From: an uncultured Anaerolineae bacterium
Lineage (GTDB): Bacteria > Chloroflexota > Anaerolineae > JAADDB01
Direction: 5' to 3'
Length of the DNA stretch: 64,000 nt
NCBI GenBank assembly: GCA_964487375.1
Contig: CAZAQA010000012.1
Coordinates: 26,313-90,312 of the forward strand
The position numbers and the translations under genes are program-made. The notes under the pieces were generated by a model. The model worked only from the letters and a program-made list of their open reading frames with translations. It did no database searches and was not told where the DNA came from. Positions 28,147 through 40,739 of the stretch are shown in pieces. Each line of letters starts with the position of its first letter. The stretch's first letter is position 1.

Positions 28147-28415
28147 GGTCGTGCACCCCCCGTCGAGACCACCCCTGGCGCCTTACCCAGCCAAACGGCT
28201 CCAGCCAGGCACTCCCGCGTCACCCGGGCGACACCACTTAGGGCTGCTTCCTTCCGGACCTGACCCGATTCGTGGCTGCCCGCTGCGTGGGACCCAACCT
28301 TCAATACCGCTTAGGCCGGGCAGACACGCCGAGGATGCCCCCTCAGGGGGGGATTCAGCCCCGCTATGGCGGATTGCGGGTTCAGGGCACCGCCAGCTCC
28401 CCGCCTAGCACGACC
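28147..28415 (-). ncRNA. ffs: Signal recognition particle RNA, large (Alu-domain-containing) bacterial type
   Basis: Minus strand reads GGTCGTGCTAGGCGGGGAG...GGTGCCCTG..CCCGCAATCCGC (Alu domain), ...TCAGGTCCGGAAGGAAGCAGC... (helix 8; 28243-28263), and ends GTGCACGACC pairing with the 5' end. 269 nt long. Confidence 0.95.
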
Positions 28416-34682: not shown

Positions 34683-34765
34683 ATCTGCTTGTGGGAACGG
34701 GACTAAAAGAGTATAATGGACACACGATTCCAGGTGGGGCATGAGTGGCCCAGAGGAGTATGACA

Positions 34766-35356
34766 ATGAACGCGATTAACCGTGTCGTGGCCGTCCTGAT
34801 ATTTCTCCTGTTCCTTGTGGGCACTATTCTCGTGGCTCTCTTTCCTTTTGAGACTTTGACAATGCTTGGCCACGTTGCAGAGACATTGTACGCTGGCCTG
34901 AGCGAATGGTACGGGGCGTCCCCACTTCTCTTTCGGGTGGGGCAAGTGGCGGTAGTTCTGGCCTCCCTCCTGGTCTGGGGGACGTTGCTCTTCTTTGAGG
35001 TCCGACGCGGTAAGCCCCGGACAGTACAGGTGGCCGTTTCGGAAGGTGGCCGAGCAGAAATTTTGGTGGATTCCGTTGCGCTGCGCCTCTCCTATTATCT
35101 CGATCAACTGGCTGATGTCATCAATGTCACCCCACGCGTTCGCAGCAAAGGCAACGTTGTCCACGTCGCGGTGGACGTGGAAACCACACCTGATGTGGAC
35201 GTGCCCATGAAAACCCAGGAAATTATGCATGTCATCCGAGAGGTAGTAGAAGAGAGGATGGGATTGAAATTGGGGCGCGTTGATGTACGCATCAAACACG
35301 CCCCCTTTCCACAGGACGTGGGGGAGCCTCAAGTCATCGGTTCAACACGACAATAG
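34766..35356 (+). CDS. AmaP/Asp23-family membrane-anchored protein
   Basis: Two TM helices, then an Asp23-like domain (V.V.P...IQE...EVVEERMGLKLGRVDVRI). Start after GAGGAG. Confidence 0.7.
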   Translation: MNAINRVVAVLIFLLFLVGTILVALFPFETLTMLGHVAETLYAGLSEWYGASPLLFRVGQVAVVLASLLVWGTLLFFEVRRGKPRTVQVAVSEGGRAEILVDSVALRLSYYLDQLADVINVTPRVRSKGNVVHVAVDVETTPDVDVPMKTQEIMHVIREVVEERMGLKLGRVDVRIKHAPFPQDVGEPQVIGSTRQ

Positions 35357-35870
35357 CCTCCCCTTCCAGAATTTGCAGTTTCTTGATAGTGACTGGACCA
35401 AATTGTGTACTGGCCTTTTGGCTGATGACGTCTGTAAGCTGCTTCAATAGACTCTGGGGGACGGGGAGACCAGCGATGATGGCTTTCTCCACGTGGAAGG
35501 AGAGTTTCTGTCCCTGAACAGCAAGAGCGACAATAAGAAGGGCATCGCCGCTGACAGGCAGGAAGCCGCTCTTCAGGCGTCCTTTGATGTAGACTTTACC
35601 GCTGCTGAACCAGACAGTGGGCTTTCGGATGGGAACTTGAGCATCCGCCAATTTCAAGTTGATGTACGAGGTGATTTCCGACTCGGTGAAGCGTATTTTT
35701 ACGTCACCTGGAGGTGCGTCTTTTAGCGAGGCGAGTTTCTGCTCGAAACGCTGTGCGGCCGCCTTACTGATCGGGACATCCCGTTGGGGCACGTCGATTT
35801 TGGGTTTGGAACAGGCAACCGTGCCGAGCGCCAGAAAGAGCAAGGGCATAATGAGCAGGAATTTTTTCAC
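35334..35870 (-). CDS. Hypothetical lipoprotein (LmeA/DUF2993-like tubular fold possible)
   Basis: GTG start after GGAGG; MKKFLLIMPLLFLALGTVA-C lipobox; FTESEITSYI motif. Confidence 0.6.
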   Translation of the reverse strand: MKKFLLIMPLLFLALGTVACSKPKIDVPQRDVPISKAAAQRFEQKLASLKDAPPGDVKIRFTESEITSYINLKLADAQVPIRKPTVWFSSGKVYIKGRLKSGFLPVSGDALLIVALAVQGQKLSFHVEKAIIAGLPVPQSLLKQLTDVISQKASTQFGPVTIKKLQILEGEAIVVLNR

Positions 35871-35921
35871 GATACAACCTCCCTTTGGACTTTGTACCTG
35901 ACATCCACATACGAGTATATC

Positions 35922-36623
35922 ATGGCTGAGGGTACGCACATAAAACAAGACGGTGCACTATCAGCGAACGTTCCGACATCCAAACAAGTTGGACGGGCTT
36001 TGGAACGACGTTTGGAGGCCCTCTTGTTCGTCGCTCCTGCCCCGGTCCCCTTGGCCGATCTGGCCCGCATTTTGTCGGTTTCGCTTGCAGAGGTGGAAAC
36101 TTCCCTGGAAGCACTGCAGAAGCACCTGGAAGGCCGGGGACTTGTCCTCCAGCGTCTGCGGAACAAGGTTCAGTTGGTTACCGCGCCCGATTTGTCGAAA
36201 GATATCGAGCGCTTCCTGGGATTAAACGTCTCCCATAGCTTGAGTGCAGCCGCGGTGGAAACCCTGGCCATTATTGCCTACAAGCAACCGGTTACACGGG
36301 CAGAAATCGAGGCCCTTCGTGGGGTGAACAGCGATGGAGTTTTGCGCTCACTGGTGAGCAAAGGGTTAGTGGAAGAGGTGGGGCGAAAGGAGACGGTCGG
36401 TCGCCCCATTCTGTACGGCACCTCAATGAATTTCTTGCAATATTTCGGCCTACGCAATCTCTCCGAACTCCCACCTTTGAAGGCAGGGGAGGTTACGGCG
36501 GAAACGCTGGAGAAAGCACTGCAAGAAGCGGGGCGCAGGGACCGGGAAGGAAGGGGAGACCCTGAGACGGATATCTCACGACCAAATCGTGCGCGCCGGG
36601 CGCAGATGGGTCGGGATAAATAA
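35922..36623 (+). CDS. scpB: SMC-Scp complex subunit ScpB
   Basis: LEALLFVA, LSAAAVETLAIIAYKQPVTRAEIEALRGVNS and GRPILYGTS..FLQYFGL..LSELP. Confidence 0.96.
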   Translation: MAEGTHIKQDGALSANVPTSKQVGRALERRLEALLFVAPAPVPLADLARILSVSLAEVETSLEALQKHLEGRGLVLQRLRNKVQLVTAPDLSKDIERFLGLNVSHSLSAAAVETLAIIAYKQPVTRAEIEALRGVNSDGVLRSLVSKGLVEEVGRKETVGRPILYGTSMNFLQYFGLRNLSELPPLKAGEVTAETLEKALQEAGRRDREGRGDPETDISRPNRARRAQMGRDK

Positions 36624-36634
36624 GAGGTGATGCC

Positions 36635-37378
36635 ATGTACAACTTGTGGGAAGTCCGGAAGCGGAAAGGGATGACGCTGCGAGACTTGGCAGCACGCACA
36701 GGGATTCCCTTGGAACGCCTGGCTGCTTACGAACAGGGCCGCGAATCCATTCCATACAGTGACTTGCCGCGGCTGGCCAAGGCGTTGTATGTCGAGGAAT
36801 GGGAGATCAAAACGCGTTCCGATCCGCCACCCCAGAAGCGCTCTCAACAGCGGGCTCGTCCGCGCTCATCCCATCGTCCCTCAGGTAGACCGTCACGTCG
36901 GGCTCGTCCCCAAAAGCGGCCAACGCGTAGACGAGTCCCTCCTCCCCCCAGTCCAGCGCGGGAAACCCAACTGGCTCATCTGCGTCAATTGGTCCCGGCC
37001 GTGGGTAAGACGGTAGAGGAAATCGAGCAATCCCTGGGTAAACCACTTTCCGAACTCACGCGACGAGAGGCCTCCCAACTCCTTTTCCGCTTTCAAGAGA
37101 TTCTGCGGGAAAGGAAACAAGAAGCCAAGGAGGAAGGTGCCCATAATCGACGCCGCGCTTACCTGCCAGAAGGCGTGGACCGTTTTGAGATGGAGTATCT
37201 GACGGATGTCCAGAATTCCGCCCATCCCGTCCGTTTTCACCTTTTCGACGGGACGGAAGTCGAAGGGTCCATCGTCGGTTTTGGCCCTTACACTATCACT
37301 GTCCACACCCAGGAAGGTGAAACCACTCTGAACAAGCTCGCCATCGCCTGGTATACGCGGAAAGGAGGCGCGCCATGA
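36635..37378 (+). CDS. XRE-HTH / Arg-rich linker / helical module / C-terminal Hfq(Sm)-like fusion protein A
   Basis: aa 1-58 HTH_3 (RKRKGMTLRDLAARTGIPLERLAAYEQG). aa 183-241 FEMEYLTDVQNSAHPVRFHLFDGTEVEGSIVGFGPYTITV...TLNKLAIAWY aligns by eye with Hfq [40 protein letters not shown]...MVYKHAISTV. Confidence 0.75.
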   Translation: MYNLWEVRKRKGMTLRDLAARTGIPLERLAAYEQGRESIPYSDLPRLAKALYVEEWEIKTRSDPPPQKRSQQRARPRSSHRPSGRPSRRARPQKRPTRRRVPPPPSPARETQLAHLRQLVPAVGKTVEEIEQSLGKPLSELTRREASQLLFRFQEILRERKQEAKEEGAHNRRRAYLPEGVDRFEMEYLTDVQNSAHPVRFHLFDGTEVEGSIVGFGPYTITVHTQEGETTLNKLAIAWYTRKGGAP

Positions 37379-37827
37379 GCACAGGGGACTACGTGCGTTT
37401 CTTGCGTGCCCTCCATGGAGGACAAGATTTTTTTACCATCCAGGAGGCCTCTGGAGTGCCTTCCAGTGTCATGCGTCAGCTCGAACAACGCTACCGACAT
37501 GTTGGGGATGAGGAGACCCTGCATCGATTGGCCGAATATTACGGAGTTCCCGCGGAAGAACTCTTGTGGCGGCGAGAATGGTCTCGAGCTCGGCTGACGT
37601 TTGCTCTTGAGGATGCCATTCGCGAGGAGGTGCCCATCCGTTTGTTCCTGCGTACAGGCGAGACATTCGAAGGTCAGGTGCGTTGGGTGGACCTGGCGGC
37701 GACCTGCCTGGAAGTGGAGGGGCAAGAAATCATTGTTCAGCGTCATTGGGTGGACAAATGGGAGCTACTGCGAAAGGGAAAAGAGGAACGAGCAGAAAAG
37801 AGCAGGAGAGGCGAGGGAAAAAGTTAG
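37375..37827 (+). CDS. XRE-HTH / Hfq(Sm)-like fusion protein B
   Basis: aa 1-65 HTH-like (VRFLRALHG...IQEASGVPSSVMRQLEQ...LHRLAEYYGVPAEEL). aa 74-130 LTFALEDAIREEVPIRLFLRTGETFEGQVRWVD...IVQRHWVDKW is Sm-like. ATGA overlap with protein A, SD AAGGAGG. Confidence 0.72.
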   Translation: MSTGDYVRFLRALHGGQDFFTIQEASGVPSSVMRQLEQRYRHVGDEETLHRLAEYYGVPAEELLWRREWSRARLTFALEDAIREEVPIRLFLRTGETFEGQVRWVDLAATCLEVEGQEIIVQRHWVDKWELLRKGKEERAEKSRRGEGKS

Positions 37828-38443: not shown

Positions 38444-39109
38444 ATGATCTTTCGTAATCGGCAGGAAGCGGGAAGACTTTTAGCGAAGCGGCTCGAGGCG
38501 TTACGGAATGAACCGGACATCGTGGTGTTGGGAATCCCGCGCGGTGGGGTGGTGGTGGCCGCTGAAATTGCGCGGCACCTGGCTGCTCCTCTGGACGTTT
38601 ACATCACGCGTAAGCTGGGGGCACCAGGAAACCCGGAACTGGCCATTGGGGCCGTTGCCGAAGATGGGACCACTGTGCTGGATGAGGAGAGCATTCGTTT
38701 CCTCTCCGTCCCAGAAACCTATTTGAGACGAGAACAAGAACGTCAGCAAGAGGAAATTCACCGACGGGCTCAACGTTATCGGCAGGGGCGTTCCGCAATC
38801 CCCTTGGAAGGCAAACGCGTAATTCTGGCCGACGATGGGGTTGCCACCGGACGAACTCTGGAGGCGGCCATTCGCTCGTTGCGTCGGCAACCATTGCGTG
38901 CCCTTATTTTGGCCATCCCTGTGGGCCCTCCTGCCACAGTGGAGCGCTTGCGGCAACTTGTGGACCAGGCGGTAGTCCTGGACACACCGGAACCGTTTTG
39001 GGCGGTTGGCATGTTCTATGAAGACTTCCGACAGATCAGCGATGCGGAAGTCAAAGCCCTATTGAACCAATTCTACGACACGACGGAGGACTCATTCCCC
39101 CATGAGTGA
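38444..39109 (+). CDS. Phosphoribosyltransferase-family protein
   Basis: FRNRQEAG, VLGIPRGG, RKLGAPGNPELAIGA and PRPP loop VILADDGVATG. Confidence 0.88.
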   Translation: MIFRNRQEAGRLLAKRLEALRNEPDIVVLGIPRGGVVVAAEIARHLAAPLDVYITRKLGAPGNPELAIGAVAEDGTTVLDEESIRFLSVPETYLRREQERQQEEIHRRAQRYRQGRSAIPLEGKRVILADDGVATGRTLEAAIRSLRRQPLRALILAIPVGPPATVERLRQLVDQAVVLDTPEPFWAVGMFYEDFRQISDAEVKALLNQFYDTTEDSFPHE

Positions 39110-40739
39110 GCAAGAGACAACATCGATTGCTGTAGTTGGACATCGGAATCCCGACACGGATTCCATCGCTTCACCCATTGCCTACGCGTGGCTCAAATGC
39201 CGCGAGGAGCCGAACGAGCATTTCCAAGCCTTCCGCTTGGGTGAAATCAACCGTGAGACCAGGTTTGTCCTGGATTACTTCCAAGTCCCCCTCCCCCCAT
39301 TGCTTCCTCATGTCCGCCGCCGGGTGCGGGAAGCCATGGTCACTCGGGTTGTTACGGCCATGGCCGATGCCACCTCTTACCAGGTAGGCTTTCTCATGCG
39401 TGAAAAGGGAGTGCGCTCGGTCCCCTTGGTTGACGGGCATAATCGTCCCGTAGGGCTGGTCACCACACGCAGCCTGGCCGAACTCTACATCCACGAAGCG
39501 GGGACCTTCTCCTTTGCCGTCAAGCCTCCGACTGTGGCGCAGGTGGTTCGTACCCTGGATGGGGAACTGCTTGTGGGGGATCCGGAAACCCATCTAACAG
39601 GCCGACCGGTGGTTGCCGCGATGACCCCCGGGCTGATGCGCAAGTTCTTACGTCCGGGGGACGTAGTCATTGTGGCTAACCGGCGCGATGCTCAACGGAC
39701 AGCCCTCGAAAGTGGCGCCAGTGCCCTGATTGTCTCTGGAGGTGTTCGACCGCAACCGGCCCTCCTTGAAAATGCTCGGCGAGGAGGCGTCGTGGTTATT
39801 CTCTCTCGACATTCTACAGCCTCCACTTTGCGCCTTGTGCGTCTGAGTCTACCCGCGCTCGCCATGGCCGAAATCCACCCCCTGACCTTTTCTCCCAAGG
39901 AAATCTTGAACGAGATTACACCCGACATGATGCAAGATCGGCATGGAGTCGCTCTGGTCGTAGACGAGGAGAATCACCTGGTGGGTATTCTCACACGCCA
40001 CGATCTCTTGCACCCAAAGCGTCGGCGGCTCATTCTTGTGGACCATTCAGAGCCCCCTCAGGCGGTCGCCGGCATCGAAGAGGCCGAGATTCTGGAGATC
40101 ATCGATCACCATCGTCTCGGAGGCTTGGAAACGCGAGCACCATTGCGCGTCTGGGTCAAGCCTGTGGGAAGCTCCTCAACGTTGGTATTCGAACGGTACA
40201 GAGACATCGGGGTTACGCCGTCACGACCAATGGCTGGCCTGATGTTGGCGGCCATCCTCTCCGATACCATGCTTCTGCGTTCGCCCACTACGACCGAAGA
40301 GGACCGAATGGCTGTGGATAGTCTGGCAGCTTTAGCTCAGGTCGACGCCCAGGTTTTCGGTGTGGAGATGTATCGGGCCAAGACGGACATTTCAGGCCTT
40401 TCCGCTCAAGAGCTTGTGCGCGGTGACATGAAACCGTATGTCCTGGGAGGACAACGCATTGCGATTGCACAGGTGGAAGTCGCTGACAGGGAACAATTGC
40501 TTGCACGGCTGGATGAAATCCGCCAGGCCTTGCGAGCGTTGCGCCAACAAGGGCATTATGACATCGCTCTCCTTCTGGTGACAGATGTGCTGGCCGAAGG
40601 GAGTACGGCAATCGCAGTGGGGAACGTCCGCTTGGTCGAGCGGGCGTTAGGCGTGGACCTGCACAAAGGCTATGCTTGGCTCCCCGGTGTCCTCTCCCGC
40701 AAGAAGCAAGTTGTCCCCGTACTGGCTACGGCCGTTTGA
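39102..40739 (+). CDS. ppaC: Family II Mn-dependent inorganic pyrophosphatase with CBS-DRTGG-CBS insert
   Basis: GHRNPDTDS, CBS pair around a DRTGG domain, IIDHH, ILSDT and SRKKQ. Confidence 0.93.
   Translation: MSEQETTSIAVVGHRNPDTDSIASPIAYAWLKCREEPNEHFQAFRLGEINRETRFVLDYFQVPLPPLLPHVRRRVREAMVTRVVTAMADATSYQVGFLMREKGVRSVPLVDGHNRPVGLVTTRSLAELYIHEAGTFSFAVKPPTVAQVVRTLDGELLVGDPETHLTGRPVVAAMTPGLMRKFLRPGDVVIVANRRDAQRTALESGASALIVSGGVRPQPALLENARRGGVVVILSRHSTASTLRLVRLSLPALAMAEIHPLTFSPKEILNEITPDMMQDRHGVALVVDEENHLVGILTRHDLLHPKRRRLILVDHSEPPQAVAGIEEAEILEIIDHHRLGGLETRAPLRVWVKPVGSSSTLVFERYRDIGVTPSRPMAGLMLAAILSDTMLLRSPTTTEEDRMAVDSLAALAQVDAQVFGVEMYRAKTDISGLSAQELVRGDMKPYVLGGQRIAIAQVEVADREQLLARLDEIRQALRALRQQGHYDIALLLVTDVLAEGSTAIAVGNVRLVERALGVDLHKGYAWLPGVLSRKKQVVPVLATAV

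Follow-up and report, generated by a model that had tools for sequence, protein, structure and literature searches.

We found that two adjacent genes in an uncultured member of the Anaerolineae (Chloroflexota), here called A and B, each encode an N-terminal XRE-type helix-turn-helix (HTH) domain joined to a C-terminal Hfq-like domain of the Sm fold. The genes lie within a stretch of 64,000 nucleotides (contig CAZAQA010000012.1 of assembly GCA_964487375.1, positions 26,313 to 90,312, forward strand; hereafter the window) and combine known domains in a conserved two-gene arrangement that has not been described. Hfq is among the best-studied bacterial RNA-binding proteins and is known as an unfused homo-hexamer, and Sm rings that combine several paralogues are considered an invention of eukaryotes. 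The explanation that we favor for the A-B pair, with a probability of roughly 50% for the model as a whole, is that the two Hfq-like domains assemble into a mixed ring that would serve as a multivalent DNA-binding factor.

The C-terminal domains of A and B are true Hfq homologues by both sequence and fold. We searched the Protein Data Bank (PDB) with profiles built from about 43 orthologous C-terminal domains per protein and retrieved only Hfq and Sm chains, including Hfq from Bacillus subtilis (E = 1.7e-5) and Anabaena (E = 4.6e-4) and a weak snRNP E match (E = 0.033) for A, and Hfq from Caulobacter (E = 6.4e-6), Aquifex (E = 2.8e-5), and Anabaena (E = 4e-5) for B. In Pfam, B scores above threshold against the Hfq_1 family (PF21979; aa 79-125, 33.0 bits, threshold 27), which is matched at E ≤ 0.01 by 43/43 B orthologues. 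Protein A reaches 20.5 bits against Hfq itself (PF17209; aa 188-238, E = 3.6e-4), below the threshold of 27, and its scores stay below threshold throughout (20.5 to 24 bits); when 44 orthologous A domains were scanned singly, 22 matched Hfq and 22 matched Hfq_1 (E ≤ 0.01), with no other family found. NCBIfam gave the same domain picture for both proteins as Pfam, and the LSM model (PF01423) matched neither at E ≤ 10. We also ran AlphaFold2 on the family alignments, as monomers only. The model of A (predicted local distance difference test [pLDDT], 87.1) ends in a helix (residues 179-195) followed by five strands (198-242), and the model of B (pLDDT, 84.5) has a two-residue break between the HTH helices and the helix at 71-83, followed by five strands (88-131); the Hfq-like domain exceeds a pLDDT of 90 in each. 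All of the top 50 Foldseek matches of both models in the PDB are Hfq chains (probability 1.00, template modeling [TM] score to target of 0.75 to 0.92, root mean square deviation of about 1 to 2 Å).

The N-terminal domain of A matches HTH_31 (37.8 bits, threshold 27) and HTH_3 (35.6 bits, threshold 23) over residues 4-54. Profile matches identify the B N terminus as an XRE HTH that has diverged: the window protein scores 18.5 bits against HTH_31 and stays below threshold throughout (18.5 to 20.6 bits), 27 of 43 B orthologues match HTH_31 at E ≤ 0.01 (best, 9.4e-8), and in the PDB the B HTH profile best matches the DNA-binding domain of BldD (2ewt, E = 0.003) and ImmR (7t8i). An earlier, sequence-only reading of this DNA had described an XRE HTH and an Hfq-like C terminus in both proteins, and Pfam, profile searches, and AlphaFold models agree with that description; the non-Sm fold of the C termini that it had named as evidence against itself was not seen, since Foldseek, Pfam, and the profiles all predict Hfq/Sm.

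The two proteins are also related to each other in both of these domains. hhalign pairs their C-terminal domains with 96% probability (E = 3e-9; 22% identity in the Hfq-like domain) and their N-terminal HTH domains with 85% probability (E = 6.5e-6), which makes A and B paralogous proteins built on a single plan. Of the two, B seems to be the compact form, and A has gained a Pro/Arg-rich linker and, in most lineages, a three-helix module. Across 81 orthologues, the A linker is 28% proline and 16% arginine, with a median net charge of +6 and a median length of 47 residues (range, 0 to 188), and B tails are often short and acidic. The three-helix module has a conserved motif (P-x-R-x-x-Q-I-x-H-L ... 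G-K-P-L-x-E-L-T-x-x-E-A-S-x-L-L). Searches of the PDB and Pfam returned no relative of this module beyond weak matches to DUF3072 (4 of 43 members, best E = 0.008) or MrpR_N, and hhalign comparison with HTH domains was negative.

Pairing of the two genes is strict. A pattern-based genome scan with one genome per species, a design that cannot establish universality of the pair in the class, yielded 80 loci, all in Chloroflexota (Anaerolineae, Anaerolineales, Caldilineae, Ardenticatenaceae, Candidatus Amarolinea, and similar), with one A-B locus per assembly across at least 80 assemblies; the gene A family comprises at least 167 clusters, and 81 A orthologues were aligned. A B homologue lies directly 3′ of A at 79 of the 80 loci, and the contig carrying the 80th stops about 100 nt past A, leaving 79 of 79 informative cases. 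With start codons refined, the A-B junction is an ATGA or GTGA overlap at 73 loci, an overlap of 8 to 11 nt at 3, and a gap of 3 to 4 nt at 4. The B family is narrow, given that an exhaustive HMMER search of 1.84 billion representative proteins with the B profile produced only 91 matches at E ≤ 0.001 and 36 at E ≤ 1e-10. We looked up ten divergent B-like proteins drawn from the matches of this search and their clusters, eight of which were informative (one had no DNA, and one lay on DNA nearly identical to that of another). An A-like HTH-Hfq gene sits directly upstream of the B-like gene in all eight of these lineages, and no solitary HTH-Hfq relative or ancestor-like form was present among the eight loci. 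A divergent clade labeled Chloroflexi, Chloroflexia, or Candidatus Chlorohelix carries the pair as well, which extends the A-B module to at least two classes of Chloroflexota. The overlap of the two window genes by ATGA was correctly read from the sequence alone (Table 1), and lack of conservation of the pair, which that reading had said would count against it, was not observed in these surveys. Database labels for the family members are mostly generic ("helix-turn-helix transcriptional regulator," "hypothetical protein"; some at JGI are "sRNA-binding regulator protein Hfq"). Our literature search, which combined Hfq with HTH, XRE, fusion, Chloroflexi, and Anaerolineae, found neither HTH-Hfq fusions nor a paired form described, in line with the initial claim that the architecture is uncharacterized.

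The divergent lineages differ from the window pair in several details. B-like partners of the Chloroflexia/Candidatus Chlorohelix type have a tail of 60 to 180 residues with RGG/GGNFRDN repeats (L086, 5001..5732; L081, 1106..2050; P0175, P0177, and P0240-P0282), and the A-like partners of this type have a Ser/Pro/Asn-rich linker and no three-helix domain. The basic low-complexity region is thus on the other subunit there. In the lineage represented by L088 (1820..2167) and L090 (8283..8777), A and B are about 100 to 130 nt apart without overlap, with a DUF4446 gene on the upstream side of the pair and a gene for an M48 peptidase on the downstream side.

Residues Gln8, Asp40, Phe42, Tyr55, Lys56, and His57 of Hfq make up the proximal uridine pocket and the inter-subunit hydrogen-bond network. 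We mapped Hfq numbering onto A and B through HMMER alignments and the E. coli Hfq sequence and counted residues in 81 A and 80 B sequences. Asp40 and His57 are both lost in A, which has Gly/Ser217 and Leu235 (81/81) in their place, and both retained in B as Asp106 (80/80) and His124 (80/80). Conversely, the Phe42 position is Tyr219 in A (79/81) and Gly/Ala108 in B, and Ala58-Ile59 is kept in A (Ala236 in 81/81, Ile237 in 61/81) and not kept in B. Lys56 corresponds to Lys234 in A (81/81) and Arg123 in B (80/80), and Gln8 corresponds to Glu185 in A and Leu74 in B. Around Tyr55, A reads Asn233-Lys234-Leu235-Ala236-Ile237 and B reads Gln122-Arg123-His124. The beta4/beta5 loop holds the most invariant residues of the two proteins, K234 of A and R123 of B, and R123 persists even in the most divergent relatives. 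The full proximal-site and Sm2 set (Gln8, Asp40, Phe/Tyr42, and Tyr55-Lys56-His57-Ala-Ile) is found in neither chain alone. On these counts, the complementary split between A and B is conserved far beyond chance, and the complementary invariant versions argue for two distinct, co-adapted subunit types. The division that had been proposed from the single pair, with B keeping the Asp and His and A keeping Lys-x-Ala-Ile, holds across both families.

These observations bear on whether A and B mix at all. Two separate homo-hexameric HTH-Hfq proteins, co-expressed and unmixed with separate or sequential roles, would be in keeping with the finding that every Foldseek match of A and B in the PDB is a homo-oligomeric Hfq and with the strong divergence of the two Hfq-like domains; to our knowledge, all characterized bacterial Hfq proteins are homo-hexamers. 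However, constant adjacency and translational coupling in about 88 loci from at least two classes is not expected of independent proteins, and each paralogue lacks part of the Hfq interface and pore set that the two restore jointly, making this arrangement quite unlikely. The central proposal of the sequence-only reading, a 1:1 heteromeric ring that would display HTH domains, is consistent with the way the two genes always occur together and are coupled in translation, and with their complementary split of invariant residues; we consider a direct A-B complex of some kind probable.

From these features we infer hetero-oligomerization, its stoichiometry, DNA binding, and a cellular role, as follows. 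A and B would be made in equal amounts through translational coupling, and their Hfq-like domains would co-assemble into a 1:1 mixed ring, most likely a hexamer in which the two alternate (A3B3). The pore at its center would be a composite, with Tyr219 and Lys234 contributed by A and Asp106, Arg123, and His124 contributed by B. Three B HTHs would be rigidly joined to the ring on the face of the N-terminal helices (the proximal face in Hfq), and three A HTHs would hang on long, basic, Pro/Arg-rich tethers bearing the extra three-helix module. Such a ring, with several HTHs and basic tails, could bind several DNA segments at once; DNA binding by the pair in some form is a rather better than even prospect. 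The particle may then serve as a DNA-binding factor of the nucleoid-associated or global regulatory kind, plausibly together with SMC-ScpAB and ParAB, and RNA or single-stranded DNA (ssDNA) may bind in the conserved composite pore as a modulating ligand.

Several known systems share parts of this design. Eukaryotic Sm/LSm hetero-heptamers place paralogous Sm-fold subunits in fixed ring positions, which is the principle proposed here for A and B; unlike the A-B pair, whose heteromer is a proposal, they have seven different subunits and no DNA-binding domains and act in RNA processing. Regulators of the ArgR type have a homo-hexameric core with DNA-binding domains at its periphery; they wrap or bridge DNA, and a small ligand binds in the core. 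The folds are unrelated, and the resemblance to A and B is a functional analogy only. E. coli Hfq has been reported to be nucleoid associated and DNA compacting (PMC6235962), a precedent for a DNA-related role of the fold.

The closest structural relatives are Hfq proteins themselves. A and B share with Hfq (PF17209) the N-terminal helix and the five-stranded bent sheet, along with remnants of the Sm1 and Sm2 motifs (LFDG in A and LRTG in B; NKLAI in A and QRHxV in B). Unlike Hfq, they are fused to an N-terminal HTH and form an obligate paralogue pair in which each member has a partial proximal/interface set, and they sit by chromosome-organization genes rather than in the miaA-hfq-hflX context. 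The cyanobacterial Hfq-related proteins (PF21979; Synechocystis Ssr3341, 3HFO; Anabaena Asl2047, 3HFN) are the best-scoring family for B and are matched by half of the A orthologues as well, and alignments to 3hfn show shared Sm1 features, W-x-D among them. In contrast to A and B, these proteins have about 70 aa and are stand-alone and homo-hexameric, with neither an HTH nor a paralogous partner. The columns for the rim arginine patch (Arg16/17/19) and the distal-face A-R-N site (Tyr25, Ile30, and Lys31) are variable or non-basic in both the A and B families. Lacking a complete proximal site and a rim patch, and not being unfused, A and B are not Hfq in the functional sense.

The same columns are relevant to the possibility that the pair is an RNA chaperone replacing canonical Hfq in Chloroflexota, with HTHs that contact RNA or protein rather than DNA. 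Homology to Hfq would be expected under this explanation, as would the long RGG/GGNFRDN-rich tails of Chloroflexia-type B proteins, which are typical of RNA-binding proteins, and the JGI label of some members points the same way. Nevertheless, the rim and distal-face residues used for RNA annealing are not conserved, the proximal site is complete in neither protein, and the HTH domains retain canonical XRE features. Cyanobacterial Hfq, from the family that best matches the B C terminus, binds RNA poorly, which also counts against a chaperone role. We judge this explanation improbable.

A further comparison is with HTH-WYL regulators (PafBC, DriD, SiwR, BrxR, and CapW), which likewise combine an HTH and an Sm fold in one chain. 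By analogy, A and B could form a heterodimer or small oligomer with sequence-specific DNA binding, in which the Sm folds detect ssDNA or RNA by way of the beta4/beta5 loop and thereby turn the HTHs on or off. PafB and PafC are homologous, are encoded next to each other, and work as a heteromer; their Sm fold (WYL) binds ssDNA at the equivalent of the Hfq RNA site through Arg residues of the beta4/beta5 loop (PMC10693628). The adjacency of the A and B paralogues and the position of K234 and R123 in that loop are reminiscent of this arrangement. However, PafBC is actinobacterial and has a winged HTH and WYL/WCX domains, whereas A and B have an XRE HTH and a ring-forming type of Sm fold: the WYL model (PF13280) matched neither protein even at E ≤ 10, the top Foldseek matches are Hfq rather than WYL proteins, and the domains are homologous to ring-forming Hfq, with TM scores of 0.8 to 0.9 to hexamer subunits. 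In addition, a conserved operator was not found (see below), and the low-complexity, basic linker is suggestive of DNA binding without sequence specificity. We judge a PafBC-like sensor-regulator unlikely.

Gene neighborhoods give a hint of the cellular role of the pair. The only invariant neighbor of A is B. In the window, gene A follows scpB, which encodes the condensin subunit ScpB and whose immediate neighbors do not include scpA; the true scpB start is probably downstream of 35784, as the Pfam match covers the open reading frame (ORF) only from aa 76 onward. Among 73 related loci with enough flanking sequence, 44 have scpB directly upstream of A on the same strand, and the 203-aa membrane protein upstream of scpB (X) recurs in 35 of 80 related loci to form a block, X-scpB-A-B. 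At locus L083 (1663..9486; the same in L084), a divergent A-B pair directly follows genes for a ParA protein (CbiA/AAA_31) and a ParB_N protein. The recurrent neighbors point weakly to chromosome organization and segregation, and the scpB/parAB context favors the DNA and nucleoid side of the functions first proposed for the pair (an RNA-guided factor or a DNA-bridging scaffold); a role in chromosome organization nonetheless remains a tentative proposal.

The L083/L084 locus also raises the question of whether the pair is a toxin-antitoxin system, a phage-repressor pair, or a defense module on a mobile element. Such modules typically include XRE-HTH genes that overlap by ATGA, and this divergent pair lies among genes for a PhdYeFM antitoxin, an HTH_17 protein, an SLFN_AlbA_2/HATPase_c_4 protein, and an N6_N4 DNA methyltransferase in addition to ParA and ParB_N; its B-like protein is identical on the 24 contigs that were read. 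Against this origin, both partners are HTH-Hfq proteins with no toxin-like domain, and the pair occurs as a single locus per assembly in a housekeeping context (scpB, tldD, purA, and signal recognition particle [SRP] RNA). Viral contigs scanned with the B alignment and plasmids and phages searched by tblastn with B-type proteins gave no matches, and PADLOC and PHROGs scans of the pair gave generic HTH matches only, with no defense system among them. Together, the domain, context, viral, plasmid, phage, PADLOC, and PHROGs results effectively refute a toxin-antitoxin, mobile-element, or defense origin, which we regard as highly improbable.

A number of points weigh against the mixed DNA-binding ring. 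Homo-oligomers of each protein, or a heterodimer of A and B, stay plausible alternatives. Covariation between the two proteins (74 pairs) gave a strong signal for A238/239 with B93, mostly from one clade, that hints at a contact; we did not count it as evidence because it cannot be separated from phylogeny. The lack of conserved rim and distal-face residues makes classical RNA matchmaking unlikely, leaving an RNA or ssDNA ligand speculative. On the DNA side, the exposed recognition-helix residues of the A HTH are variable among relatives, so that, as far as the alignments tell, its DNA target is unclear. We found no conserved operator or DNA motif upstream of A in the 29 loci without scpB, where the only enriched k-mers correspond to the 3′ end of the upstream tldD and some loci have plain sigma-70-like promoters. 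Finally, scpB linkage is missing in 29 of the 73 loci, which have tldD or unrelated genes upstream instead, and the parAB region of L083/L084 looks like a mobile element.

A mixed A/B ring, if true, would mean that paralogue-based Sm rings arose in bacteria too. It would also be a natural case of the Hfq fold recruited to DNA and chromosome biology, bearing on the debated nucleoid role of E. coli Hfq, and would give a large and little-studied phylum, in which few nucleoid proteins have been characterized, a candidate chromatin or regulatory factor. In its fullest form, the model would make the pair the first known bacterial heteromeric Sm/Hfq ring, an A3B3 particle with a pore for RNA or ssDNA and six HTHs bridging DNA, acting as an RNA-responsive nucleoid organizer with SMC-ScpAB or ParAB and representing an independent bacterial invention of the paralogue ring; we hold this full version to be doubtful. 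The pair is small and soluble-looking and hence directly testable in the laboratory.

Apart from the A-B operon, the window is ordinary chromosome, with purA and genes for an FtsJ/S4 methyltransferase, UbiA, a thioesterase, a phosphoribosyltransferase, and a CBS-DHH protein in addition to scpB and SRP RNA (Table 1). It contains no other Hfq-like ORF. The SRP RNA, 8 kb from the pair, was the sole gathering-level match in an Rfam scan of the window, which found no tRNA, and a promoter and terminator scan around the A-B operon gave nothing above shuffled expectation.

Table 1. Coordinates of the A-B gene pair, its predicted domains and signals, and selected neighbors in the window
Feature	Position	Strand	Description
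203-aa membrane protein	34745..35356	+	No Pfam match; conserved upstream of scpB
scpB (condensin subunit ScpB)	35784..36623	+	PF04079 SMC_ScpB, E = 1.2e-53; ends 11 nt before gene A
Shine-Dalgarno, gene A	36624..36629	+	GAGGTG, read from sequence; 5 nt before ATG at 36635
Gene A	36635..37378	+	247 aa; XRE-HTH, basic linker, three-helix domain, Hfq-like domain
A aa 1-62	36635..36820	+	XRE-type HTH (HTH_31, HTH_3); AlphaFold2 helices within 4-51, pLDDT 97-98
A aa 63-106	36821..36952	+	Predicted disordered Pro/Arg-rich basic linker; pLDDT about 50
A aa 107-160	36953..37114	+	Three-helix middle domain, family unknown; AlphaFold2 helices 110-123, 127-134, 143-163; pLDDT 90-95
A aa 176-243	37160..37363	+	Hfq-like (Sm-fold) domain; invariant Y-L-P-E-x-V-D lead-in; Sm2-like motif N-K-L-A-I
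Shine-Dalgarno, gene B	37362..37368	+	AAGGAGG, read from sequence; within 3′ end of gene A
A/B junction	37375..37378	+	ATGA; B start codon on A stop codon; translational coupling
Gene B	37375..37827	+	150 aa; divergent XRE-HTH directly joined to Hfq-like domain, short charged tail
B aa 1-68	37375..37578	+	Divergent XRE-type HTH; five AlphaFold2 helices, 3-68
B aa 69-131	37579..37767	+	Hfq-like (Sm-fold) domain (Hfq_1); Sm2-like motif Q-R-H-x-V-x-x-W
CBS-DHH multidomain protein	39102..40739	+	DHH, CBS, DRTGG, DHHA2; CBS-regulated family II pyrophosphatase-type architecture
Bacterial large SRP RNA	28149..28413	-	Rfam RF01854, 178 bits, full length

Hfq domains were also seen in other fusions among the matches of the B-profile search. 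In two proteins (P0192 and P0194; 849 and 482 aa), a GmrSD-type restriction endonuclease domain precedes a pair of Hfq domains and a cold-shock domain, and in three more (P0187, P0195, and P0227) Hfq domains occur together with S1 domains.

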